Below, one piece after another: positions 28,485 to 41,632 of a DNA stretch of 64,000 nucleotides. The first letter of the stretch is position 1, and each line of letters begins with the position of its first letter. The stretch is from the NCBI RefSeq assembly GCF_041886205.1, contig NZ_CP169029.1. One strand, written 5' to 3'. A program made the position numbers and the translations under genes. The notes below the pieces were generated by a model. That model did not search any database, was not told where the DNA came from, and saw only the letters and a program-made list of their open reading frames with translations. The DNA comes from Escherichia coli (GTDB taxonomy: Bacteria > Pseudomonadota > Gammaproteobacteria > Enterobacterales > Enterobacteriaceae).

Positions 28485-29216
28485 TCAGGCTGTTACCAAA
28501 GAAGTTGCAACCTGGCGCTCATCAGAAATAATGTGCGTTACCTCATCCAGATGCCCGATGCGGGCTTCCCCTGAACGATTAAATTTACTTTTATCAATCA
28601 ATAACAACGATTGCGCGGCACGTTTTAATAGCATCGATTTGTAATCAGCGTTGATGGCATTGGAGTCCCACAGTGCGCCGCTGCTATCGATCCCTTCACA
28701 AGAAAAAATAAACAGATCGATTTCCAGCGATTTAAGTTGGGAAATCAGCGAGGGATTGACGTAACAGCCATATTTGCGCTCAAGTGTGCCGCCGGAACTG
28801 ATCAGTTGAATGCGTTCGCGTTTACCGAGTTCATGGCAAATCGGATGGCTATTGGTGAAGACCTGAATGTTGATGTCAGGCAACTGGCGTGCCAGATACC
28901 AGCAAGTTGAACTGGCGTCTAAGGCTATCACCATCCCTTCTTCAATCCACGCGAGCGCCTCGCGCGCGATATCTGCTTTATGCGCATAATGGCTTTTCAG
29001 CCGGATGTGAAAGGGATCGCCACTGTCTTGATTTTGACGGTGGATATATTTAGCGCGTCCATGATTGCGCAGAATTTTACCCTGCGTCTGTAATTCATTG
29101 AGATCGCGACGAATGGTTTCTTTACTGACCTTTAGCTGTTCAGAGAGAGCTTCCGTGGTCAGGCTGGTATGGTTCAGCAGCAGGTCGACTATCGCTTGCT
29201 GGCGTGCCGCTTTCAT
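28485..29216 (-). CDS. fucR: L-fucose operon activator FucR (DeoR family, 243 aa)
   Basis: ATG at 29214-29216 gives MKAARQQAIVDLLLNHTSLTTEALSEQLKVSKETIRRDLNEL, a DeoR-type HTH. Confidence 0.94.
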   Translation of the reverse strand: MKAARQQAIVDLLLNHTSLTTEALSEQLKVSKETIRRDLNELQTQGKILRNHGRAKYIHRQNQDSGDPFHIRLKSHYAHKADIAREALAWIEEGMVIALDASSTCWYLARQLPDINIQVFTNSHPICHELGKRERIQLISSGGTLERKYGCYVNPSLISQLKSLEIDLFIFSCEGIDSSGALWDSNAINADYKSMLLKRAAQSLLLIDKSKFNRSGEARIGHLDEVTHIISDERQVATSLVTA

Positions 29217-29273
29217 ATTTTTCACCCCATCATTCGATAACCGCCCGCGTCATGCGGGCGTACCGGTATGAGA

Positions 29274-29696
29274 TTACGGTGTTACCCCTTTTTTTAAAAG
29301 AATATTCCCGTACTTCGCTCGTTCGCCTGTGATAACGATCGCAAAGGCTTTTTGCGCCCGTTCATAAAACGCAAAACGATTGATGCGGATGATGTCAGGA
29401 CACGGGGCTTGTAGTGAAAGCGCATTACGGTAACGTCGTTCTACTTCAGGATCGAGAGTATCACCTTCTACCGCTGCCATCATCACCAGCGGCGGTGCAT
29501 AACTGTCCAGTTCAAATAACGGGATAATCGCCTGGAGCAAGTCGCTCACCAACAGGCCATCAGCGCGGATCACCTGCGGTCCCATCGAATGGGCGGGAAA
29601 GTGAGCATCGGAAAAAATAATTTCATCTCCATGTCCCATCTCTGCCAGCACTTTCAATAGTTCGGGAGAAATTAACGGCGAAATTGTTTTCAGCAT
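29274..29696 (-). CDS. fucU: L-fucose mutarotase FucU (RbsD/FucU family, 140 aa)
   Basis: 140 aa; N-terminus [35 protein letters not shown]. Confidence 0.94.
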
Positions 29697-29697
29697 T

Positions 29698-31116
29698 TCA
29701 CACTTCCTCTATAAATTCAGGTTCAGTTTGCGGGTAGAAATAACGGTACTGATAATGAATCTGTGCACGGGCTTCTTCCGGGCTGTTAAATTCCCCTACG
29801 CCATACCAACCGAACAGCGCAGCTCCTGCGACGGTCGTTTCGGCATCGTCGAGAACTTTTACCGGAATATCAAGCATATTGGCTTTAATCTGATTCCACA
29901 ATGTGTTGCGACTTCCTCCGCCGACTAACAATAATTCAGAGGCTTTAAAGTGCCCGATTTTTTCCAGCATCTGTAGATTGCGCTGTAATTGCGCGGTTAA
30001 CCCTTCCAGCGCCGCGCGATAGAAATGCCCCCGCGTAGTATTAAGCGTCACTCCTTGCCAGCCAGCGTTCTGACACGACAATAAATCACACTGCATTTTC
30101 ACGCCATCCGCGCCAGGTGCGATCAGACGAGCTTCTTCAATCAACATTTGCCAGGGTGTTTCAGCCGTCCAGAACAGTTTTCTCACCCATTCCAGCACGC
30201 CGGATGCCAGCCATTGCATACCTGGGTTATACAACCCTGCCTGGCTATCCAGTTCGCAGGTGGAACCGGCGTACTGACTTAACAGCGAAGTATCAACCTG
30301 GGCGCTACGGACCATTAAAATTTCCCATGTACCGGAGGAGAGCACTGGTTCATTTTGTTCGGCACCAGCGCCAAAAAGGGCGAACTGGGTATCGTGACCT
30401 GCGGAAATCACCGGTATGCCAACGGGTAAGCCGAGCATTGCTGCGGCGCTGTTCTGTAGCGTACCAATCTGTTCACCCGCTTCCACCAGACGAGGGAAGA
30501 GTCGGCATGGAATACCGGTGGCTTGTAAAATTTGCGGACTGAAATCGCGTTGCTGGATATCCAGCATCTGGCTGGTTCCGGCCATCGTGATATCAGTAGT
30601 GAATTCGCCGGTTAAACGGTGGTTAATCAGCGACGAAATGAAGAGCCAGGCGTGCGCGCGTTCCAGCAGTTGTGGATGATTTTCTTTCAACCACACCAAC
30701 TTATATAACGTATTGAAACTAAAGGCTCCGACGCCAGAAATAGCCTGCAACCGCTGTGCGGAGATTAACCGTTTAATATTGTCCATAACCGCTGCTGTTC
30801 GCGGACATTTCCAGCTAATGATCGGATAGAGCAGATTGCCTTGCTTATCTACCAGAGCGCCATCCACACCAAAGGTGGTGACGGCGATACCGCGGATGTG
30901 GCATTCAGTCAGTTCACTATTGATTTGCCGACAGCAATCAGCAAAGCGTTGCAAAATGGCGTCTAAAGACCACTGGTGCCAGGTGTTGTTTTCCATCGCG
31001 ATATCGCTGGCATTAGGCGTTGAGGCGCGGGCAACAATTTTTCCCTGCCGATTAACCGCGATGGCCCTGACATTGGTCGCGCCACAGTCGAGTACCAGGA
31101 TAACTTCTTGTTTCAT
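29698..31116 (-). CDS. fucK: L-fuculokinase FucK (FGGY family, 472 aa)
   Basis: ATG at 31114-31116 with RBS aggag gives [21 protein letters not shown]; an alternative upstream start at 31146 would give 482 aa. Confidence 0.93.
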
Positions 31117-31224
31117 AATCGCTCCTGCAATATAGCCGGATAACATTGCTTATCCGGCTAACCACTCTTGCTTGTTCAGGCCCGGTAGCCGGAGCGACCG
31201 GGCATCACATCAGGGAGTAATGTA

Positions 31225-33000
31225 TTAACGCTTGTACAACGGACCGTAGTTCTGGCAAGCGCGGTAATCCTGGCCTTCAATATCCATGCCGTGCGCAGCC
31301 CAGGCAGAAGGACGATACACTTTGGTCTCTTCAACGTTGTGCATACATACCGGGATACGCAGCATGGAGGCGAGAGTGATAAAGTCTGCGCCAACGTGGC
31401 CGATGGTCAGAACCCCATGGTTAGCGCCCCAGTTCGCCATTACCGAGTACACATCCGTAAACGGCCCTTTACCGGTGAGGCGCGGTGCAAACCAGGTGGT
31501 TGGCCAGGTTGAGTTGGTGCGTTTGTTGAGGATGTCATGCACATCCTTCGGCAATTCCACGCTCCAGCCTTCCGCGATTTGCAGTACCGGTCCCAGGCCT
31601 TTGATGATATTGACACGGGTCATGGTGAACGGGACGCCGCCTTCGGTAAGGAAGCGGGAAGAGTAACCGCCGCCACGGAAGTATTCGTGGATCGCCGGGC
31701 ACCATTCGGTAGCGGCGAGGCAAGCGTCAGCCTCTTGCTGAGAGATTTTCCAGTGCGGCTTCATCGTCGGGTTACCTTCGCTGTCGCGTTGTTTACAGGA
31801 ACCGTCCAGCGCAGCAGAACCTGAGTTGATCAAATGGATGATGCCGTGTTCTGCCAGTCCGTCGAGTTTATGCCCCGTTACACGCTCAATTGCTTCTGGT
31901 GACCAGTAGGTACGCACATCGGCAAATACCTGAGCGGTGCCGGTGAGCTGGTGACCCATTAGCATTGCCACGCCGTTAAGACTGTCGTTTTCGGTCGCCA
32001 CGACAAAGGGTTCGCGCACGCCATTCCAGTCAAATGAACTGTTGAGGATCGCTTCGGCAGTGTCACCATTGGGATATTGATCGGTCCAGTGGCGTTGTCC
32101 CTGGAAGCCCGCAGCGATGGCGTTGTAGCCAAGTGATTCTTCCACGCGACCAATATCGGCCAGTTTGCTGTTGCCTTGCATCATGTCGCGGATACACATC
32201 GCCATCAGTAAACTTTCGCGCAGAACTGCGCGGCTTTGCTCGGCATTGCGTTGATACTGTTTGTTATTTTCATCTTCGCCGTAGCGGAAGTTTTTATCAG
32301 CCCAGGCCAGCGCCATTTCCAGTTCGGCTTCGTCGTAAATCTTCTGATCGATACGGCGACGCAGTTCGGTCATATCCACCGCCTGGACTTTCATTCCCAG
32401 CCAGGATTCAAAGAAGTTGTGATCAACGATGGAACCAGCGATACCCATCGAAACGCCGCCCAGCGACAGATAGCTTTTACCTTTCATGCTGGCGACTGCC
32501 AAACCGGCGCGGGCAAAGCGCAGCAGTTTTTCTTCAACATCGGCTGGAATCGATGTGTCATCGGCATCCTGAACGTCATGACCGTAAATGGAGAATGCCG
32601 GGATGCCTTTCTGGCTGTGAGCTGCCAGAGCCGCTGCCAGGTAAACAGCGCCGGGACGTTCAGTGCCGTTAAAGCCCCAAATGGCTTTCGGGCGGGTTGG
32701 ATCCATGTCGATGGTTTCACTGCCATAGCACCAGCAAGGCGTTACCGTAATGGTGAGGCCTACATTCTGGCTGCTGAATTTTTCTTCGCAAGCAGCGGCT
32801 TCAGCCATACCCGCGATACAGGTATCGGAAATGACACACTCGACGGCAGCTCCGCAGGCATGGCGCAGTTTCTCGGTCAGCAGTGTGGCCGTGGCTTTCG
32901 CCATATTCATTGTTTGTTCTTCAAGCGACTCACGAACACCCATGCGACGACCGTCAATAACCGGGCGGATACCAATTTTCGGTAACGTATTAATTTTCAT
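31225..33000 (-). CDS. fucI: L-fucose isomerase FucI (591 aa)
   Basis: 591 aa; N-terminus [34 protein letters not shown]; RBS gagga. Confidence 0.95.
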
Positions 33001-33082
33001 CAGGATTCCTCATCTCGCTTTATTGGCGCTCTGCTAAGGCGGAGAAAGGAAACCACCGAAGCAGTAGTATTGGTCATTATTT

Positions 33083-33098
33083 GCTAACTCGAGTTAGC
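33083..33098. promoter_or_regulatory. perfect 16-bp palindrome GCTAACTCGAGTTAGC (copy 1), candidate LacI-family operator, about 83 bp upstream of the fucI start
   Basis: Read directly from sequence; the central CG and the 16-bp twofold symmetry are typical of LacI/GalR-family operators. Confidence 0.55.
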
Positions 33099-33321
33099 TT
33101 AGGTTTGTAGGCTTTTTATGCACAACTTTTTTGTTGTTGAAATGTGAGGGGCTTCACGAGAAGTGGTTAAAATACGATCTCTGTCAAATTATTATTTAGC
33201 GGGAGAAAAATAAATTTTACGTATAATCATATGGTTATTAGATTTTAATGGTTATGCATCACAGTTTTAACTCAAATGATTTGGCTAATTTGTATACCTA
33301 AAATAGCTTTAAAAGGCGATC

Positions 33322-33337
33322 GCTAACTCGAGTTAGC
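33322..33337. promoter_or_regulatory. perfect 16-bp palindrome GCTAACTCGAGTTAGC (copy 2), candidate operator about 133 bp upstream of the ABC transporter ATG
   Basis: Identical to copy 1, 239 bp away; a consensus TATAAT hexamer lies at 33222-33227 on the plus strand between the two copies. Confidence 0.55.
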
Positions 33338-33469
33338 AAAATGCGAAGAATAGATTGATGCGATGAATATTTATTCAAAGGTTATTCGTATCACAGTGGA
33401 GATGGCTTTAGTAGCGACGTTTATGCCGTACTTCACATTTTCAGTTTCTGATTATTGAGGAAAGCTGCA

Positions 33470-34969
33470 ATGTCCGAAACATTTTTGCAAATGAAGCATA
33501 TCACCAAACGCTTTCCTGGAGTGTTGGCGCTTAATGACGTGCAATTTTCCCTACGCCGGGGCGAGGTTCATGCATTATTAGGTGAAAATGGTGCAGGAAA
33601 ATCTACCTTAATGAAAATTTTGTCGGGGGTTTATCAACCTGATGAAGGCGAAATAATTTTTGAAGATAAACCAGTCTCATTTTCTGATCCGTTAAGTGCG
33701 CAAAACGTAGGTATTACTATTATTCACCAGGAATTTAATTTATTTCCCGAGCTTACAGTAGAAGAAAATATTTTTATCGGCAGGGAGTTTTGTAAAAAAA
33801 ATCGCTGGCGTCTGGATGAAAAACAGCAACGCCAGGCGACGATTGAAATTTTGCAAAAATTAAATTTGGCGATCAAACCAGATACTCTGGTTGCCGACCT
33901 TACGGTAGCTCAGCAGCAGATGGTAGAAATTGCCAAGGCCATTTCAGTTAACGCCAGGATTCTCATTATGGATGAACCTACTGCGGCGTTAACAGAAACT
34001 GAAATTGAAAGCTTATTTCGCGTCACCCGGTTATTGAAAGAGCAGGGGACCGGCATTGTTTATATCTCCCACCGTCTGGAAGAGTTGGCGCTAATTGCCG
34101 ACCGTGCGACTGTAATGCGTGATGGTCAGTACATCAGCACGGTGGATTATGAGTGCGTAAAAATCAGCGATCTGATTGCCATGATGGTTGGTCGCGATTT
34201 AGGGAATATCTATCCCCGCCGCGAGGCCTTGCAGCAGCGGATTCCGGTTCTGGAGGTAAACGGACTGACGCGCAAAGGCGTCCTGAACGATATTAATTTT
34301 ACGCTTTATCGTGGCGAGATCCTCGGCTTTGCCGGACTGATGGGCGCGGGGCGTACTGAACTTGCGCGTGCGATTTTTGGTGCGGATTCTATTGACAGCG
34401 GAACGCTAAAATTAAATGGTAAGGAAACCGTTATTAAAGATATTTCGGATGCTATTCAGCAGGGAATTAGTTACCTGACGGAAGACCGCAAAAAAGAAGG
34501 GCTGGCGCTGAATTTATCTGTTGAACGAAATATTATGTTAGGAAACTACCCTGAATATTCCGATCGTTTTGGGAATGTCGATTCGCGTCGTTGCCAACAA
34601 ACCAGTGAGGAACAGGTAAAAGCGTTAAGGATTAAAACGCCAAATCTTGAACAGGCGGCATTAAATCTAAGTGGAGGAAACCAGCAGAAAATTATAATTG
34701 CACGTTGGGTGTGTAAAGATACTGATATTTTAATCTTCGATGAACCCACTCGCGGCATTGATGTTGGCGCCAAACTGGAAATCTATGAGTTAATGAATCG
34801 CCTGGTGGCAAAAGGGAAATCAATCATCATGATCTCCTCTGAATTGCCTGAGGTGTTAGGAATGTGCGACCGTATTTTAGTGATGCGCAGTGGTCGAATT
34901 ACCGGCGAACTTAGCGCAAAAGAAGCGACACAAGAAAAAATTATGCAATACGCGACGTTAGAGGATTAA
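33470..34969 (+). CDS. sugar ABC transporter ATP-binding protein with two fused ABC domains (CUT2 family, RbsA/MglA-like), ~499 aa
   Basis: ATG 33470 preferred over TTG 33455 (RBS gaggaaag); Walker A GENGAGKST, signature LSGGNQQK in the second half, and total length indicate a duplicated ABC ATPase. Confidence 0.9.
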   Translation: MSETFLQMKHITKRFPGVLALNDVQFSLRRGEVHALLGENGAGKSTLMKILSGVYQPDEGEIIFEDKPVSFSDPLSAQNVGITIIHQEFNLFPELTVEENIFIGREFCKKNRWRLDEKQQRQATIEILQKLNLAIKPDTLVADLTVAQQQMVEIAKAISVNARILIMDEPTAALTETEIESLFRVTRLLKEQGTGIVYISHRLEELALIADRATVMRDGQYISTVDYECVKISDLIAMMVGRDLGNIYPRREALQQRIPVLEVNGLTRKGVLNDINFTLYRGEILGFAGLMGAGRTELARAIFGADSIDSGTLKLNGKETVIKDISDAIQQGISYLTEDRKKEGLALNLSVERNIMLGNYPEYSDRFGNVDSRRCQQTSEEQVKALRIKTPNLEQAALNLSGGNQQKIIIARWVCKDTDILIFDEPTRGIDVGAKLEIYELMNRLVAKGKSIIMISSELPEVLGMCDRILVMRSGRITGELSAKEATQEKIMQYATLED

Positions 34970-34972
34970 ATT

Positions 34973-35956
34973 ATGACTATCTCTGTAACCTCTCCAGACA
35001 GTAATAATAAGAAAATAAAGATAAATAAAGAACTTTTGATGCGTCTTGCGCCTCTTTTTAGCTTAATTATATTAGTGCTGTTTTTTAGTTTCAGCTCTCC
35101 CTTTTTCTTTAATACCGAAAATATCATGACGATTGCTCTGCAAACGTCGGTTATCGGCATTATGGCCATTGGGGTAACTTTCGTCATTATTACCGCGGGC
35201 ATCGATCTTTCATTGGGCTCCGTGGTGGCTTTTTCTGGTGTCGCCGTGGGGATTTGCGCCACACTGGGCCTGCCGCTGCCAGTGTGTATTATTGCCGGTG
35301 TTTTAGCCGGTGGAATGTGCGGCTATGTGAATGGTTTGTTGGTCACTAAAATGACCATTCCACCATTTATCGCTACCTTGGGCCTGATGATGTCCGTCAG
35401 AGGTATCAATATGGTGATGACCGACGGGCGCGCCATCTATTTTGCCGATTACCCGATGTTCAAAACGCTCGCTCAGGGACGCTTATTTGATGTGCTGCCT
35501 TATCCTGTTTTCTACCTTGTCATTGTAGCGCTTGTCGGCGCTTACATCCTGAAGAAAACCGTCATTGGTCGCTATGTCTATGCCGTAGGCAGTAATGAAG
35601 TTGCTGCTCATCTTTCTGGTATTAAAGTTCAGCGCGTGAAAATTTTCGTCTATGCCTTCTGTGGATTATTAACGGGGATTGCAGGTGTCATTCTGGCATC
35701 TCGTCTCAACTCCGGACAACCGACGGTAGGTGTGGGTTATGAACTGGAAGCTATTGCCGCGGTAGTGATTGGCGGAACCAGCTTAATGGGCGGTATTGGC
35801 ACTATTGGCGGCACAATCATTGGCGCTTTCATTATGAGTGTACTGAAAAATGGCCTCAATTTAATGGGCGTCTCCCAGTTCTGGCAAATGGTCGCGATGG
35901 GCGTCGTTGTGGTCGCTGCCGTTTACCTCGATACATTACGCAAAAAGATTCGTTGA
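34973..35956 (+). CDS. sugar ABC transporter permease (RbsC/AraH-like, 327 aa)
   Basis: Polytopic membrane protein; ATG 4 nt after the ATPase stop with RBS gagga. Confidence 0.88.
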   Translation: MTISVTSPDSNNKKIKINKELLMRLAPLFSLIILVLFFSFSSPFFFNTENIMTIALQTSVIGIMAIGVTFVIITAGIDLSLGSVVAFSGVAVGICATLGLPLPVCIIAGVLAGGMCGYVNGLLVTKMTIPPFIATLGLMMSVRGINMVMTDGRAIYFADYPMFKTLAQGRLFDVLPYPVFYLVIVALVGAYILKKTVIGRYVYAVGSNEVAAHLSGIKVQRVKIFVYAFCGLLTGIAGVILASRLNSGQPTVGVGYELEAIAAVVIGGTSLMGGIGTIGGTIIGAFIMSVLKNGLNLMGVSQFWQMVAMGVVVVAAVYLDTLRKKIR

Positions 35957-36029
35957 CTTAGGCTCCCTGTTTTATCGGGAAACAACTGCCCTGACGTTAA
36001 GGGTGATTCACTCAGAACGGAGTACAACA

Positions 36030-36980
36030 ATGAAAACCAGGCATTTTATCTATGCGTTATCTCTGCTGGCTTGCGTAAGTTCCAGCGCACTGGCGAAGGA
36101 TTTAAATCTTCCGGTTGTTAGTAAAGGTTTCCAACATGAATTCTGGCAAACCGTAAAAATGGGGACTGAAGCTGCGGCTAAAGAGTTGGGGGATAAAACC
36201 AGCTATGTTGGCCCGGCTGATGAAACGCAAATAGCCGAGCAAATTCAGTTAGTCGAAAATGCGATGGCGCAGAAACCGAATGGCTTGCTTCTGGCAGCCC
36301 TCGACGCGAATGCGCTCGCCCCACTGGTAGAAACGGCAAATTCACGCGGTATCAAAGTGGTGACCTTTGATTCAGGCATCAATTCAGACATTCCGGTGAG
36401 TTTTGTCGCCACCAATAACCGTAAAGCAGGTGCTCAGGCAGCTGATGCCTTAGCCTCGCAGGTAAATAATAAAGGGAAAGTTGGGATTATCGCGCACGTT
36501 GCAGGAACATCTTCCGCTATTGAACGCTCGGAAGGCTTCATGGAGCGTATGAAAGAAAAATATCCTGACATTAAAGTCTTACCCGTTCAGTACAGCGATG
36601 GTGACCCGCAAAAAGCGATGGATAAAACTATCGATATGATTCAGGCCAATCCCGATCTTGCTGGGATCTATGGCACCAATGAAGGTTCAACGCTCGGGGT
36701 GGCGAATGCCATTGATAGCCAGAATCTGAAAGGTAAGGTGAAGGTCATTGGTTTTGATAGTACGGAAGCGATTATTAACTTCCTGAAGAACGGCGTCATT
36801 CAGGGCTTTGTTGTTCAGGATGCATACCAGATTGGCTATCAAGGGATCAAAACGTTGAACGCGGCCCTTTCGGGGCAAGCCGTTGAAAAAGAGATCGATA
36901 TTCCCGTGAAATTTGTTAATGCCGAGAATATTAACACGCCAGAAATCGACAAACTCCTGCACCCATTCGGTAAGAAATAA
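36030..36980 (+). CDS. periplasmic sugar-binding protein (RbsB-like, type I PBP fold), ~316 aa
   Basis: Internal ATG at 36030 gives MKTRHFIYALSLLACVSSSALA, a signal peptide; the track ORF upstream extension overlaps the permease and lacks signal-peptide character. Confidence 0.88.
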   Translation: MKTRHFIYALSLLACVSSSALAKDLNLPVVSKGFQHEFWQTVKMGTEAAAKELGDKTSYVGPADETQIAEQIQLVENAMAQKPNGLLLAALDANALAPLVETANSRGIKVVTFDSGINSDIPVSFVATNNRKAGAQAADALASQVNNKGKVGIIAHVAGTSSAIERSEGFMERMKEKYPDIKVLPVQYSDGDPQKAMDKTIDMIQANPDLAGIYGTNEGSTLGVANAIDSQNLKGKVKVIGFDSTEAIINFLKNGVIQGFVVQDAYQIGYQGIKTLNAALSGQAVEKEIDIPVKFVNAENINTPEIDKLLHPFGKK

Positions 36981-37032
36981 AAAATTGGGGATGAATTTTC
37001 ATCCCCGTTATCTCCAGCGTCAGGGAGGCTTT

Positions 37033-38613
37033 ATGCACAACGGTTATTTTCTCGGTGTCGATGTCGGATCGGCCAGTGTCAGGGCAGGCGTTTACAGTGC
37101 CAGTGGCCACAGGCTGGCATTCGCTACTGCGCCCGTCTCCCAGTTTCGCCCTGGCGGCGAGCGTGTCGAACAGTCTTCGGCAGAGATCTGGCAACAAGTT
37201 TGTAAAACGGTGAAAGAGGCGACAGCTTTGGCAGGCATCCCCATTTCCGCAATTCGCTCACTGGGTTTTGACGCTACCTGCTCGCTGGTTGTTCTTGATG
37301 AACAAGGCCAGGGTTTAGCGGTTTCGTCCGGTGGATCTGCGAATCACGACATTATTATGTGGATGGATCATCGTGCAACTGTCGAGACGGCGCAGATTAA
37401 CGCAATGAAGGATCCCGCATTGCGCTACGTTGGCGGCGAAGTGAGCGTCGAGATGGAGTTACCAAAGTTACGTTGGTTGAAGACGCATCTACCGCAAACC
37501 TGGCAGGCCGCTCATCGCTTTTTCGATCTGGCGGATTTTCTGGTCTGGAAAGCAACAGGGCGAGACGTCGCGGGATTATGCACGCTAACGTGTAAATGGA
37601 ATTATCTAGCTCATGAGCAACGCTTTAGCCATAGCTTACTGGAATCGATAGACCTGACCGATATGCTTGAAAGAATTCCTGCCAACATTCTTCCGCCTGG
37701 CGCTGCCGTGGGAACGTTAACCGCCACAGCTGCTGAAGAGTTAGGATTAACGACTAATGTTATCGTGGCCAGTGGCTTGATTGATGCCCATGCCGGTGGC
37801 GTGGCGCTGGCTGGCGCTCACCCATCAGGAACGCTGGCATTGATAAGCGGAACGTCGAACTGCCATATGCTGTGTAGTGAAAAAGAGATATTCACCCCTG
37901 GCGTCTGGGGGCCATACTGGTCGGCCATGTTGCCAAATTACTGGCTAACCGAAGGCGGGCAAAGCGCCGCAGGGGCGCTGGTGGAGTGGACGCTTCAGGA
38001 GTCAGGGGCAAGCGCAAATCTTTTTCACAAGGCGCAGCAACGCGGATGTCATCCGATTCAACTGATTAATGAATGGGTAGCAGCCCTTGAAGCTAACGAG
38101 TCAGAACCCACACGAAATTTACATGTGCTTGCCGATCATCACGGCAACCGTTCGCCACGAGCGCGGCCCGATGCCAGAGGCAGTGTTTATGGCTTAACAC
38201 TGGAGCGTGGTGAAAATCAGCTCGCGCGACTTTATCTTGCGACTTTACAGGCAATAGCCTTTGGCACCAGACATATTATTGAAACTCTGCGGGAAAATGG
38301 GCATACCATTACCCGATTAACATTATGTGGTGGTGCAACGCACAACCCTTTATGGCTACGCGAATATGCAGACGTGACAGGTTGCGATATCCACCTGATG
38401 CAAGAAGAAGATGCCGTTACGTTGGGCGCAGCAATTAGCGGCGCTGTTGCCAGCGGAGCATGGGGGGATTTTACATCTGCGTGTAAAGCAATGGTTGAAG
38501 CCGGAGAGATTATTCAGGTAAATCCACAACGCCGTGAATTTTTAGAGCGTAAATACCGGGTTTACCTGACGCTTTGGGAGCAACAACAGGCGGTTAACCA
38601 ACTGATGCAATAA
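37033..38613 (+). CDS. FGGY-family carbohydrate kinase, pentulose-kinase-like subgroup (~526 aa)
   Basis: Internal ATG at 37033 (RBS cagggagg) gives MHNGYFLGVDVGSASVRAGVY, the FGGY N-terminal motif; GTSNCHM motif mid-protein; the track ORF start at 36913 overlaps the binding-protein gene. Confidence 0.87.
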   Translation: MHNGYFLGVDVGSASVRAGVYSASGHRLAFATAPVSQFRPGGERVEQSSAEIWQQVCKTVKEATALAGIPISAIRSLGFDATCSLVVLDEQGQGLAVSSGGSANHDIIMWMDHRATVETAQINAMKDPALRYVGGEVSVEMELPKLRWLKTHLPQTWQAAHRFFDLADFLVWKATGRDVAGLCTLTCKWNYLAHEQRFSHSLLESIDLTDMLERIPANILPPGAAVGTLTATAAEELGLTTNVIVASGLIDAHAGGVALAGAHPSGTLALISGTSNCHMLCSEKEIFTPGVWGPYWSAMLPNYWLTEGGQSAAGALVEWTLQESGASANLFHKAQQRGCHPIQLINEWVAALEANESEPTRNLHVLADHHGNRSPRARPDARGSVYGLTLERGENQLARLYLATLQAIAFGTRHIIETLRENGHTITRLTLCGGATHNPLWLREYADVTGCDIHLMQEEDAVTLGAAISGAVASGAWGDFTSACKAMVEAGEIIQVNPQRREFLERKYRVYLTLWEQQQAVNQLMQ

Positions 38614-38677
38614 GACAAAAGTTGAAAATACTTTTATGATTGTGATTTGACGTCTGGATGTTAACTGGGAAATACCT

Positions 38678-39676
38678 ATGGCTAAAACAGTAGAGCAGAT
38701 AGCCAGCGACCTGAATTTATCGGTTACGACCGTGCGACTGGTGCTAAATGGAAAAGCGGAACAATATCGAATCAGCGTCAAAACCCAAACGCGTATCAAT
38801 GAATATGTTGAACGCTATGGTTATATCATTAATCATTCCGCTCGCAGCCTTAAGCTTAACAAAACTGATACATTAGGGTTGATTGTTCCCAACATATCCA
38901 ACGTCTTTTTTGCTACGCTGGCAGAAAAACTCGAACAACGCTGTCGACGTTCCGGATATCAACTTACAATCAGTTGCACTTATGATGATGTTGACTATGA
39001 AAATAAATTGACGAAAGCATTTATCGCACGAAATGTAGATGGTCTTTTTATTGTTCCTTCGACGCTGGAAAATCAGCAGCATCATTTACGCAAAATTCGT
39101 AAGCCCATGGTTTTACTCGATCGTGATTTTAAATATACCGATAACGCATTGGTAGAGAGTAATAATATTTCTGGCGGAGAAAAGCTGACGCAAAATATTC
39201 TTGAGGCCGGGCAGACTCCAGTATGGTTTTTGCTGGGAGATGCCGGTTTGCCGAGTATCAGCGATCGTCTGACAGGTTATTTGAATGCGTTGGCAAAAAA
39301 AGGGATTACCCATCGCGATTGGGTGCGGGAAGGTCCGGTAAATACTCCGGAAGGCGGCTATGTCATTATGGAAAAACTCATTGAAGAGCAGGGATGTCCG
39401 CAGGCATTTATCGCCTCGTCTTTGCCTGTGCTTGAAGGCGCTGTCCGCGCGATTCGCGACCGTCTTGGCGCTGTACCGCCAGAAATCAATATTGGCACTT
39501 TCGATGAACATCCTATGCTGGGATTTCTCGCCAACAATGTCTGGTCAATGCAGCAGGATGAAAATGCCTGGGCAGAAAAAGCGTTCGAAATGATGTTAAG
39601 CGCGATCGAAGAAAGACCAGTCAAAAAAACAGTTAAAGTAGAAATGAAATTAATTAAGCGCATAAGAAAAAAATAA
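38678..39676 (+). CDS. LacI/GalR-family transcriptional regulator (332 aa)
   Basis: N-terminal HTH region followed by a periplasmic-binding-protein-like sugar-binding fold (LGLIVPNISNVFFATLAEKLE). Confidence 0.88.
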   Translation: MAKTVEQIASDLNLSVTTVRLVLNGKAEQYRISVKTQTRINEYVERYGYIINHSARSLKLNKTDTLGLIVPNISNVFFATLAEKLEQRCRRSGYQLTISCTYDDVDYENKLTKAFIARNVDGLFIVPSTLENQQHHLRKIRKPMVLLDRDFKYTDNALVESNNISGGEKLTQNILEAGQTPVWFLLGDAGLPSISDRLTGYLNALAKKGITHRDWVREGPVNTPEGGYVIMEKLIEEQGCPQAFIASSLPVLEGAVRAIRDRLGAVPPEINIGTFDEHPMLGFLANNVWSMQQDENAWAEKAFEMMLSAIEERPVKKTVKVEMKLIKRIRKK

Positions 39677-39808
39677 TAATCGCCAAAAGATATCAGGCTA
39701 CTGAACAATGATATTCAGTGGCCTCCCCTTACTAAAAATAACCCCGTCTTCATTTGCGGTGCTGTTTTACGCAACAAGGCGAGCTGAAACTGTATCTGGA
39801 GAATAGAA

Positions 39809-40456
39809 ATGGAAAGAACACGTTTATCCCGTGAAATAATTGAAACCTGTCTGGAAATGACGCGCCTTGGGTTAAATCAGGGGACAGCGGGGAATGTCAG
39901 CACACGTTTTGAAAACGGCATGTTGATTACTCCCAGCGGTATTCCTTATGAAAGAATGACGGAGAATATGATTGTCTATGTTGATGGCAACGGCAAATAC
40001 GAAGAAGGTAAGATTCCTTCCAGCGAGTGGCGTTTCCATATGGCAGCCTATCAAAGCAGACCGGATGCCAACGCGGTTGTTCACAATCATGCCGTTCATT
40101 GCACGGCAGTTTCCATTCTTAACCGACCGATCCCCGCTATTCACTACATGATTGCGGCGGCGGGCGGTAATTCTATTCCTTGCGCGCCTTATGCGACCTT
40201 TGGAACACGTGAACTTTCTGAACATGTTGCGCTGGCTCTCAAAAATCGTAAGGCAACTTTGTTACAACATCATGGGCTTATCGCTTGTGAGGTGAATCTG
40301 GAAAAAGCGTTATGGCTGGCGCATGAAGTTGAAGTGCTGGCGCAACTTTACCTGACGACCCTGGCGATTACGGACCCGGTGCCAGTGCTGAGCGATGAAG
40401 AGATTGCCGTAGTGCTGGAGAAATTCAAAACCTATGGGTTACGGATTGAAGAGTAA
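39809..40456 (+). CDS. fucA: L-fuculose-phosphate aldolase (class II aldolase, 215 aa); N-terminal ~70 residues appear divergent from the K-12 allele
   Basis: 215 aa; residues from about 75 onward (SSEWRFHMAAYQSRPDANAVVHNHAVHCTAVSIL...KFKTYGLRIEE) match E. coli FucA as recalled; the N-terminal part carries many substitutions. Confidence 0.9.
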   Translation: MERTRLSREIIETCLEMTRLGLNQGTAGNVSTRFENGMLITPSGIPYERMTENMIVYVDGNGKYEEGKIPSSEWRFHMAAYQSRPDANAVVHNHAVHCTAVSILNRPIPAIHYMIAAAGGNSIPCAPYATFGTRELSEHVALALKNRKATLLQHHGLIACEVNLEKALWLAHEVEVLAQLYLTTLAITDPVPVLSDEEIAVVLEKFKTYGLRIEE

Positions 40457-40483
40457 TTTCGTAAAGCAACAAGGAGAAGGATG

Positions 40484-41632
40484 ATGGCTAACAGAATGAT
40501 TCTGAACGAAACGGCATGGTTTGGTCGGGGTGCTGTTGGGGCTTTAACCGATGAGGTGAAACGCCGTGGTTATCAGAAGGCGCTGATCGTCACCGATAAA
40601 ACGCTGGTGCAATGCGGCGTGGTGGCGAAAGTGACCGATAAGATGGATGCGGCAGGGCTGGCATGGGCGATTTACGACGGCGTAGTGCCCAACCCAACAA
40701 TTACTGTCGTCAAAGAAGGGCTCGGTGTATTCCAGAATAGCGGCGCGGATTACCTGATTGCTATTGGTGGTGGTTCTCCACAGGATACTTGTAAAGCGAT
40801 TGGTATTATCAGCAACAACCCGGAATTTGCCGATGTGCGTAGCCTGGAAGGACTTTCCCCGACCAATAAACCCAGTGTACCGATTCTGGCAATTCCCACC
40901 ACAGCAGGCACTGCGGCAGAAGTGACCATTAACTACGTGATCACTGACGAAGAAAAACGGCGCAAGTTTGTTTGCGTTGATCCGCATGATATCCCGCAGG
41001 TGGCGTTTATTGACGCTGACATGATGGATGGTATGCCTCCAGCGCTGAAAGCTGCGACGGGTGTCGATGCGCTCACTCATGCTATTGAGGGGTATATTAC
41101 CCGTGGCGCGTGGGCGCTAACCGATGCGCTGCACATTAAAGCGATTGAAATCATTGCTGGGGCGCTGCGAGGATCGGTTGCTGGTGATAAGGATGCCGGA
41201 GAAGAAATGGCGCTCGGGCAGTATGTTGCGGGTATGGGCTTCTCGAATGTTGGCTTAGGGTTGGTGCATGGTATGGCGCATCCACTGGGCGCGTTTTACA
41301 ACACTCCACACGGTGTTGCGAACGCCATCCTGTTACCGCATGTCATGCGCTATAACGCTGACTTTACCGGTGAGAAGTACCGCGATATCGCGCGCGTTAT
41401 GGGCGTGAAAGTGGAAGGTATGAGCCTGGAAGAGGCGCGTAATGCCGCTGTTGAAGCGGTGTTTGCTCTCAACCGTGATGTCGGTATTCCGCCACATTTG
41501 CGTGATGTTGGGGTACGCAAGGAAGACATTCCGGCACTGGCGCAGGCGGCACTGGATGATGTTTGTACCGGTGGCAACCCGCGTGAAGCAACGCTTGAGG
41601 ATATTGTAGAGCTTTACCATACCGCCTGGTAA
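40484..41632 (+). CDS. fucO: L-1,2-propanediol oxidoreductase / lactaldehyde reductase (iron-containing alcohol dehydrogenase, 382 aa)
   Basis: MANRMILNETAWFGRGAVGALTDEVKRRGYQKALIVTDK; RBS aaggaga; second of two adjacent ATGs preferred. Confidence 0.94.
   Translation: MANRMILNETAWFGRGAVGALTDEVKRRGYQKALIVTDKTLVQCGVVAKVTDKMDAAGLAWAIYDGVVPNPTITVVKEGLGVFQNSGADYLIAIGGGSPQDTCKAIGIISNNPEFADVRSLEGLSPTNKPSVPILAIPTTAGTAAEVTINYVITDEEKRRKFVCVDPHDIPQVAFIDADMMDGMPPALKAATGVDALTHAIEGYITRGAWALTDALHIKAIEIIAGALRGSVAGDKDAGEEMALGQYVAGMGFSNVGLGLVHGMAHPLGAFYNTPHGVANAILLPHVMRYNADFTGEKYRDIARVMGVKVEGMSLEEARNAAVEAVFALNRDVGIPPHLRDVGVRKEDIPALAQAALDDVCTGGNPREATLEDIVELYHTAW

Follow-up and report, generated by a model that had tools for sequence, protein, structure and literature searches.

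The locus studied here carries fucose and D-arabinose genes of a kind already described in E. coli itself. An L-fucose/D-arabinose (dar) gene cluster has been described for E. coli B (Elsinghorst and Mortlock 1994, as cited in PMC12307932), section 10 of PMC12307932 presents DarK as an insertion in the fucose locus, and BL21 carries a fucP-less 'variant 2' of the fuc operon (PMC10221146). Among the published phenotypes, D-arabinose supports growth of REL606, and fucI of BL21 is still induced by fucose despite the missing fucP and fucP promoter. The papers that we found on this dar or 'variant 2' module describe its genes and phenotypes and do not mention a LacI-type regulator, operator boxes or promoters. 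Here we analyse a 64,000-nucleotide stretch of E. coli DNA (contig NZ_CP169029.1; the whole stretch is referred to as the window), in which two identical 16-bp palindromes bracket the divergent control region between fucI and an ATP-binding cassette (ABC) transporter operon. Comparative analysis of this region indicates that the palindromes are very probably operators of the LacI-family regulator encoded at 38678-39676. A literature search with the box sequence returned only short hairpin RNA constructs with CTCGAG loops, and no description of a LacI-type fucose or D-arabinose regulator was found in the literature; the gene module is known, while the boxes, the promoter layout and the role of the regulator appear not to have been described previously.

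Twin palindromes flank a divergent control region

The exact, perfect palindrome GCTAACTCGAGTTAGC occurs twice in the window, with the layout GCTAACT-CG-AGTTAGC, an even-length inverted repeat with a central CG step. The two copies (OP1 and OP2) and the regulator, for which we use 'DarR' as a convenience name that is not official, are located as follows.

33083..33098: OP1, on the fucI side, conserved as TTGCTAACTCGAnnTAGCwTAG in 27 fucI/ABC loci
33322..33337: OP2, on the ABC-operon side, conserved in the same 27 loci
38678..39676, plus strand: LacI-family regulator, Cra/FruR-like, 332 amino acids, presumed to bind the boxes

OP1 and OP2 lie 239 bp apart, centre to centre. The fucI ATG (33000, minus strand) is separated from OP1 by 82 nt, and the ATG of the ABC ATPase gene (33470) from OP2 by 132 nt. 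An earlier note on this DNA had described the two identical 16-mers, their spacing, their distances to both start codons and a TATAAT at 33222-33227, all of which were borne out by a sequence check, as was the divergent control region with one box on each side. No third match to the palindrome was found in the 64-kb window with up to 3 mismatches allowed, and dinucleotide-preserving shuffles of the window gave a mean of 0.17 matches, with none of 100 shuffles reaching 2. E. coli B REL606 has the same two boxes at the same 239-bp spacing, and no box was found in 50 kb of neighbouring REL606 DNA or in the 12 kb of a K-12-type fuc locus (L002). The latter result bears on a point raised in the earlier note, that boxes in strains lacking the module would be FucR- or CRP-related: the K-12-type fucP-fucA intergenic DNA contains none.

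The regulator is a Cra-like protein with a conserved DNA-reading head

The best NCBIfam matches of the regulator are fruct_sucro_rep and Cra, both below their cut-offs (217.6 bits against a cut-off of 385 for the Cra model NF008452, and 235.8 against 389.55 for TIGR02417), such that the protein does not reach the family cut-offs for a Cra equivalog. Pfam places a LacI helix-turn-helix at residues 6-51 (E 6.5e-4), together with Peripla_BP domains, and the hinge motif ARSLKLN is conserved. Its recognition helix reads SVTTVRLV, compared with SRTTASYV in Cra. Orthologues with 70-97% identity are found in E. whittamii, Citrobacter, Buttiauxella, Enterobacter, Atlantibacter, Superficieibacter and others, and more distant homologues (49-65%) in many Enterobacterales and in Gilliamella. 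The DNA-reading head, including the hinge motif SLK, is almost invariant among orthologues down to 56% identity, and the target sequence of the protein should therefore be conserved as well.

The box accompanies the regulator across genera and gene contexts

To follow this expectation across genomes we used 80 genome loci (1.54 Mb) fetched around homologues of the regulator, counting a box at no more than 2 mismatches. The box, GCTAAnTCGAnTTAGC, occurs 120 times in 65 of these loci, while shuffled copies gave 1-2 occurrences. The association holds in several gene contexts and supports the suggestion of the earlier note that this LacI-family protein binds the palindromes as its operators. A box pair between fucI and the ABC operon is present in every locus whose regulator has at least 72% identity; a single box lies 16-100 bp upstream of darK homologues; and each lone regulator gene has a box 55-70 bp upstream, in an autoregulatory position. 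Taken together, these positions fit a regulon.

The pattern of variation within the 120 sites is informative as to what reads them. Bases 1-3, 8-10 and 13-15 never or almost never vary, and the TCGA in the centre is likewise close to invariant. Variation falls mainly on positions 6 and 11, where it is asymmetric in 64 sites and a compensatory double change in only 2. Such asymmetric, non-compensatory variation argues for a protein that reads each half-site rather than for a hairpin. The palindromes could in principle act as hairpins, that is, as small terminators, transcript-stabilising stems or a REP-like repeat, and a generic scan does list OP1 as a weak terminator-like stem, with 6 pairs followed by TTAGGTTTGT. 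OP2, in contrast, has no T-run, the 64 asymmetric changes (positions 6 and 11) disrupt the stem and just the two compensated ones preserve it, the invariant outer and central bases suit a sequence-specific reader, and in every context the sites lie in promoter regions and accompany one regulator family. The chance that the palindromes function as hairpins instead of protein sites is in our judgement next to negligible.

As a reverse check on the predicted operators, metagenome contigs were scanned for the exact 16-mer. Of the 93 contigs found, 27 contain fuc, ABC, darK or regulator genes that can be recognised near the box. Two exact boxes at a spacing of 239-240 bp occur in seven contigs, each of which is a fucI/ABC locus. 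Four contigs with a GC content of 0.63-0.66 (L106, L130, L131, L159) carry an exact 16-mer about 20-30 bp upstream of darK homologues (55-57% identity); these are unlikely to be Enterobacterales, and the link between box and kinase may accordingly predate the enteric family and extend beyond it. One match was set aside as coincidental: in contig Ga0049103_1001801 (L091 1290-1620) the 16-mer lies inside TTTACAACTATGCTAACTCGAGTTAGCATAGTTGTAAA, a 38-bp perfect palindrome that is present in 4 copies in non-coding DNA and represents an unrelated repeat.

Two sets of loci extend the box beyond the fuc and dar genes. In Lelliottia, Huaxiibacter, Superficieibacter and Chimaeribacter, a third box lies about 90-105 bp upstream of an operon encoding a DUF2961 (PF11175) protein and a GPH-family symporter, at these positions:

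L019: 13778
L020: 14555
L030 and L032: 13931
L034: 13910
L079: 13901

DUF2961 corresponds to the GH172 glycosidase family, which includes alpha-D-arabinofuranosidases, and the position of this box suggests a regulon that extends to taking up and cleaving D-arabinofuranosides. The second set concerns a paralogue of the regulator (about 53% identity), which has a box, GCTAACTCGAATTAGT, 56 bp upstream of its own gene in Klebsiella, Mixta, Franconibacter, Atlantibacter and Citrobacter freundii M-21 (L051, L052, L054, L056, L064, L075-L077, L080). The paralogue loci also have a second set of sites, a box pair 219-376 bp apart, 8-9 kb away; in Klebsiella (L052) this pair adjoins genes for a 549-aa unnamed protein, an MFS transporter, an enolase-family dehydratase, an SDR protein and a DapA-like aldolase. 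The arrangement looks like a regulon of its own, of sugar-acid type, in which the DNA specificity of the box is used a second time.

Conserved islands at fixed distances define the control region

The fucI-ABC intergenic region was aligned from 17 species and its distances were measured on the 27 loci, which represent about 12 genera. The alignment contains an ordered set of conserved islands: OP1; TTGT on the minus strand; TGTGA-N6-TCACG; TCA..TA; GTCACAATT; TTTGgc; ATAGcTTT; and OP2. The elements and intervals that we assign between the two boxes are listed below.

33096..33125, minus strand: putative fucI promoter; -35 TTGTGC (33125-33120), 18-nt spacer, -10 TAAGCT (33101-33096), start ~33089
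33143..33158: CRP site 1, TGTGA-N6-TCACG, centre 33150.5, invariant in 27/27 loci; assigned to CRP by consensus only
33159..33247: central AT-rich spacer, fixed at 88-89 bp; contains an IHF-like WATCAR-N4-TTR (33225-33237) and TATAAT (33222-33227)
33245..33266: tentative CRP-like site 2, centre ~33255.5; right half GTCACAATT (33258-33266; TCACA at 33259-33263) conserved in 27 loci
33281..33309, plus strand: putative ABC-operon promoter; -35 TTGGCT (33281-33286), 17-nt spacer, -10 TAGCTT (33304-33309), start ~33316-33317
OP1 centre to CRP site 1 centre: 60 bp in 27/27 loci
CRP site 1 to CRP-like site 2: 104-105 bp in 27 loci
CRP-like site 2 to OP2: 74-75 bp in 27 loci
OP1 to OP2: 238-240 bp in 27 loci
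fucI start codon to OP1 (flank): 90-121 bp in 27 loci
OP2 to ABC start codon (flank): 47-160 bp in 27 loci

Both promoters are predicted from conservation and geometry only. On the fucI side, TTGT and TAwGCT are kept at fixed spacing across genera; on the ABC side, the conserved elements are TTTG(gc) and ATAGnTTT; and in both putative -10 elements the conserved bases are the critical TA...T. With these assignments, CRP site 1 would be centred at -61.5 of the fucI promoter, the classical class I position, and CRP-like site 2 at about -61 of the ABC promoter. OP1 would cover about -9 to +7 of the fucI start, overlapping the -10 element, and OP2 would lie at +6 to +21 (about +13) of the ABC start.

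Other promoter candidates in the region fared less well. The earlier note had pointed to the consensus TATAAT at 33222-33227 between the boxes; we reject it as the promoter, since only TCA is conserved there in other genera and better-conserved -35 and -10 elements adjoin each operator. Two promoter-like matches from a generic scan, at 33167-33195 (plus strand) and 33270-33242 (minus strand), score no better than shuffles and are not conserved. A TTGACA without mismatches (33187-33182, minus strand) was rejected as well, for want of a usable -10 at a spacing of 16-18 nt. Beside CRP site 1 lies a further block, GGTyAAAATTCGATCnnnGTCA (33164-33186), which is conserved from E. coli to Pseudenterobacter and not in Atlantibacter, Buttiauxella or Serratia DD3; it resembles neither the box nor a usable promoter, and its presence does not track that of fucR.

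Fixed spacing leaves room for a repression loop

The earlier note considered the architecture typical of LacI/GalR-family operators and of repression by DNA looping. The first part of this claim is supported by the results above. The second would require contact between the regulator molecules on the two boxes, such that the intervening 239 bp form a loop, perhaps aided by a DNA-bending protein at the IHF-like site; repression of both promoters would thereby be tightened. The constancy of the spacing across so many genera speaks for such a loop, as does the central spacer: across 15 species its length changes by no more than 1 bp, and its identity to the E. coli sequence, aligned without gaps, is as low as 30-38% (Atlantibacter, Buttiauxella, Serratia DD3), by our estimate about the level of unrelated AT-rich DNA; the outer flanks, in contrast, vary between 47 and 160 bp. 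The fixed spacing and the length-kept, sequence-free centre are the one feature of the region that goes beyond one operator per promoter.

The consensus for IHF sites is WATCAR-N4-TTR, and AATCATATGGTTA (33225-33237), which overlaps the TATAAT, matches it at 8 of 9 positions. Across genera only TCA and TA of this stretch are conserved, in an otherwise unconserved AT-rich centre, and this conserved, IHF-like TCA..TA patch is a further point in favour of a loop.

The protein itself gives less reason to expect a loop. Residues 4-328 of the regulator align with residues 2-327 of the dimeric PurR, the alignment with Cra likewise runs end to end, and neither alignment reveals a C-terminal extension or a LacI-type tetramerisation segment in the 332-aa protein, though the two operators might be bridged in some other way. 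The geometry can also be accounted for in other ways: one operator per promoter explains the pair, promoter geometry already sets the sub-intervals, and only the distance between the two CRP sites (104-105 bp, 10 turns) needs another reason, which two CRP dimers on one helix face would provide and which could constrain the length by itself. At 10.5 bp per turn, 239 bp corresponds to 22.8 turns, which is no whole number and places the boxes neither clearly in nor clearly out of phase, and paired boxes of homologues elsewhere are 112, 219 or 365-376 bp apart. The strict 238-240-bp spacing is compatible with looping, yet on balance we consider a loop doubtful.

The control region was imported together with the genes

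The elements of the locus outside the control region, and the extent of the imported DNA, are as follows.

32986..40027: imported segment of ~7.0 kb, delimited by alignment with the K-12-type locus L002; left junction within fucI (codon ~5), right junction within fucA (~nt 218)
28485..33000, minus strand: fucR-fucU-fucK-fucI, predicted to be transcribed leftwards from the imported promoter
33470-34969, plus strand: ABC transporter ATPase
34973-35956, plus strand: ABC transporter permease
36030-36980, plus strand: ABC transporter binding protein
37033-38613, plus strand: darK, FGGY pentulose kinase (D-ribulokinase)
39809..41632, plus strand: fucA-fucO, probable tail of the ABC-darK-regulator transcription unit

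The locus sits between rlmM and xni, the same chromosomal site as in K-12. Alignment with L002 shows near-identity up to 32986, which resumes from about 40027; within fucA the first 218 nt are clearly diverged, followed by ~99% identity. This pattern indicates that ~7.0 kb was swapped by recombination within the two flanking genes, fucI and fucA. In K-12-type strains the place of the transporter, kinase and regulator is taken by fucP and a fucP-fucA intergenic region of 546 bp, and fucP, the head of this operon in K-12, is absent from the window. The window and REL606 have the same accessions for DarK, the binding protein and the permease; the module is the D-arabinose (dar) cluster already known from E. 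coli B. The full-length fucI-ABC intergenic region is present in 381 of 5426 complete E. coli genomes (about 7%).

Because the junctions lie inside fucI and fucA, the entire control region, both palindromes included, was imported. The earlier note suggested that an acquired regulator would control the native fucIKUR operon; the regulator did not capture a native promoter, as the fucI-side control region is itself imported, up to about codon 5 of fucI. Neither is the arrangement of boxes an E. coli novelty: fucI, two boxes and a divergent ABC-regulator-fucA unit is the normal layout in Citrobacter, E. whittamii, Enterobacter, Lelliottia, Atlantibacter, Buttiauxella and others. fucP and the two promoters that depend on FucR have given way to an imported promoter/operator block.

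Only ~30 bp separate the regulator gene from fucA in Lelliottia, Enterobacter and Pseudenterobacter, and a search of the E. coli gap found neither a box nor a terminator. Given this, and given that the native fucA promoter is gone, fucA and fucO probably belong to the same transcription unit, as the tail of ABC, darK and the regulator. In that case all fuc and dar genes of the locus, the regulator gene among them, would be under the control of the two boxes. The E. coli gap contains a stem (39696-39723; 10-bp stem GGCTACTGAA..TTCAGTGGCC, 8-nt loop) with no T-run after it, whose core CTGAAyAA..TATTCAG is kept in E. whittamii and Citrobacter and is absent where the gap is ~30 bp; candidate roles are transcript processing or stability, or a site for another protein.

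Individual strains show damage at several points of the locus. The intergenic region of E. coli 510016 (L001) is 100% identical to that of the window; in this strain fucR is interrupted by a Tn3-family transposon (L001 415-5267) and the ABC ATPase gene is marked as a pseudogene with an internal stop (L001 9521-11020), both genes being intact in the window. In REL606, fucA is split by IS1A and annotated as two pseudogene fragments (L084 21971-23395, equal to NC_012967.1 2821970-2823394). The L-fucose-negative phenotype of REL606 has been ascribed to the missing fucose permease (PMC3446290); the broken fucA alone could account for it. Growth of REL606 on D-arabinose despite the broken fucA implies a route in which DarK passes D-ribulose on to the pentose phosphate pathway, and not via FucA.

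The adjacent regulator is favoured over FucR, CRP and Cra

An alternative reading is that the boxes are bound by FucR, CRP or Cra instead of the adjacent regulator. An intact fucR is present in the window (28485-29225), and Cra, whose operator resembles the box, is the closest characterised relative of the regulator. K-12-type loci, where FucR acts, lack the box; and no FucR homologue was detected in the sequenced flanks of two-box loci in Pluralibacter, Lelliottia, Enterobacter and Atlantibacter. As for CRP, separate conserved CRP-type sites are present. Cra is found in all E. coli, whereas the box is found only in module-bearing loci, and the regulator differs from Cra in its recognition helix as well as in its sub-threshold score. 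Binding by one of these three proteins in place of the adjacent regulator is, in view of this evidence, very improbable.

The K-12-type fucP-fucA intergenic region has a repeat of its own, with five TGACCG/CGGTCA copies in alternating orientation (L002 7557-7756), compared with none in 33001-33469 and 39677-39808 of the window. These repeats are candidate FucR sites, and FucR may have lost its targets in the module-type locus.

Several points nevertheless weigh against the assignment of the boxes to the adjacent regulator and the control layout built on it. The 80 loci were picked via the regulator, and the association between box and regulator was therefore tested mainly in one direction. About two thirds of the exact 16-mers in the metagenome contigs have no recognisable neighbour, mostly on short contigs or as probable chance matches. 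fucR is still encoded beside the locus in E. coli and Citrobacter. CRP-like site 2 has one good half only, its left half being weak, and the putative promoter elements are weak (3 of 6 matches per hexamer) and were not called by the generic scan. The poor match of both promoters would, on the other hand, fit dependence on an activator.

A predicted repressor switch for fucose and D-arabinose use

We propose a mechanism in which a dimer of the regulator would occupy each box, its reading heads at the half-sites GCTAAnT and its hinge helices inserted at the central CG. OP1 would cover the -10 element and start of a CRP-dependent fucI promoter, and OP2 would lie at about +13 of a second, divergent promoter that would serve the ABC transporter-darK-regulator(-fucAO) operon. 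When no sugar is present both promoters would be blocked, and the regulator would restrain its own synthesis via OP2. An inducing sugar would free the repressor from the boxes, and CRP-cyclic AMP would then drive both operons. Growth of REL606 on D-arabinose and induction of BL21 fucI are both consistent with this mechanism. Elsinghorst and Mortlock (1988) reportedly found that in E. coli B the fucose enzymes and D-ribulokinase are induced coordinately by L-fucose or D-arabinose, and that single mutants are constitutive for all the fucose enzymes and D-ribulokinase; a shared repressor, if present, predicts precisely such coordinate induction and single-step constitutive mutants.

The inducer is probably D-arabinose or L-fucose, or one of the ketoses D-ribulose and L-fuculose. 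Several loci that retain the regulator, the ABC transporter and the fuc genes have no darK, and Chimaeribacter retains only fucI, darK, the regulator and the DUF2961/GPH pair; the effector is accordingly most likely a sugar common to both routes. Homologues at 53-58% identity occur among sugar-acid-type genes and several proteins with no NCBIfam match (Klebsiella L052, Mangrovibacter L037), and these two contexts did not reveal an effector.

A broader interpretation would see here an undescribed regulon of the Enterobacterales, with traces elsewhere, for the use of D-arabinose and D-ribulose and the scavenging of D-arabinofuranosides. A Cra-like local repressor would control FucI acting as a D-arabinose isomerase, DarK, the ABC transporter and, in some genera, the DUF2961 (GH172-type) glycosidase and GPH symporter, and in the fucI/ABC version the repressor, despite the missing LacI-type tetramerisation tail, would form a loop that encloses the two CRP sites and a bend in the centre, which would explain the fixed 239 bp. 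We regard this combined picture as unlikely.

As a gene switch, the operator assignment is ordinary and will not surprise a specialist. Its value lies in providing a testable wiring diagram for a locus that about 7% of complete E. coli genomes carry, those of the laboratory B strains BL21 and REL606 among them. In module-bearing strains the textbook FucR-controlled fuc promoters are gone, and one LacI-type repressor acting via two boxes probably governs the fucose and D-arabinose enzymes. The locus also illustrates that recombination within the coding sequences on either side can exchange a whole control region, and not only genes. In engineering, the regulator and its box might serve as a new sugar-responsive switch, which should be independent of lac.

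Comparison with known control systems

The predicted layout can be compared with several known systems. In design it resembles the lac control region, which likewise has a LacI-family repressor palindrome at or just after the start of a weak promoter, CRP at -61.5 and more than one operator. It differs from lac in having two divergent promoters, each with its own full-strength operator, in the half-site GCTAAnT and in a regulator without the LacI tetramerisation tail.

By protein sequence the closest relative is Cra/FruR; the two proteins have the hinge region in common, as well as an insertion of three residues in the head (NGKAxQYR). The fruBKA operator of Cra is likewise palindromic over 16 bp, with GC at its ends and CG at its centre. 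The regulator falls below the Cra and FruR family cut-offs, however, and the recognition-helix residues and the inner bases of the half-site differ; moreover, Cra is a global regulator, whereas this one is local and encoded inside a sugar-utilisation operon.

With the K-12 fuc regulon (FucR and CRP; fucPIKUR and fucAO) the locus has in common FucI, FucK, FucU, FucA and FucO, the chromosomal site, the divergent layout and, as predicted here, CRP dependence. It differs in that fucP and the 546-bp FucR region have been replaced, in that the box is predicted to serve a LacI-type repressor instead of an activator, and in that fucA and fucO lie downstream of the transporter operon.

The gal operators OE and OI (GalR and HU) offer a parallel in which two operators are read by a dimeric LacI-family protein with no tetramerisation tail and an architectural protein could aid a loop. 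The gal operators are 113 bp apart around one promoter pair, whereas those described here are 239 bp apart, each on its own promoter. Considered against these systems, the control layout can be likened to a lac-like design that has been duplicated back to back and would be operated by a Cra-like local regulator.

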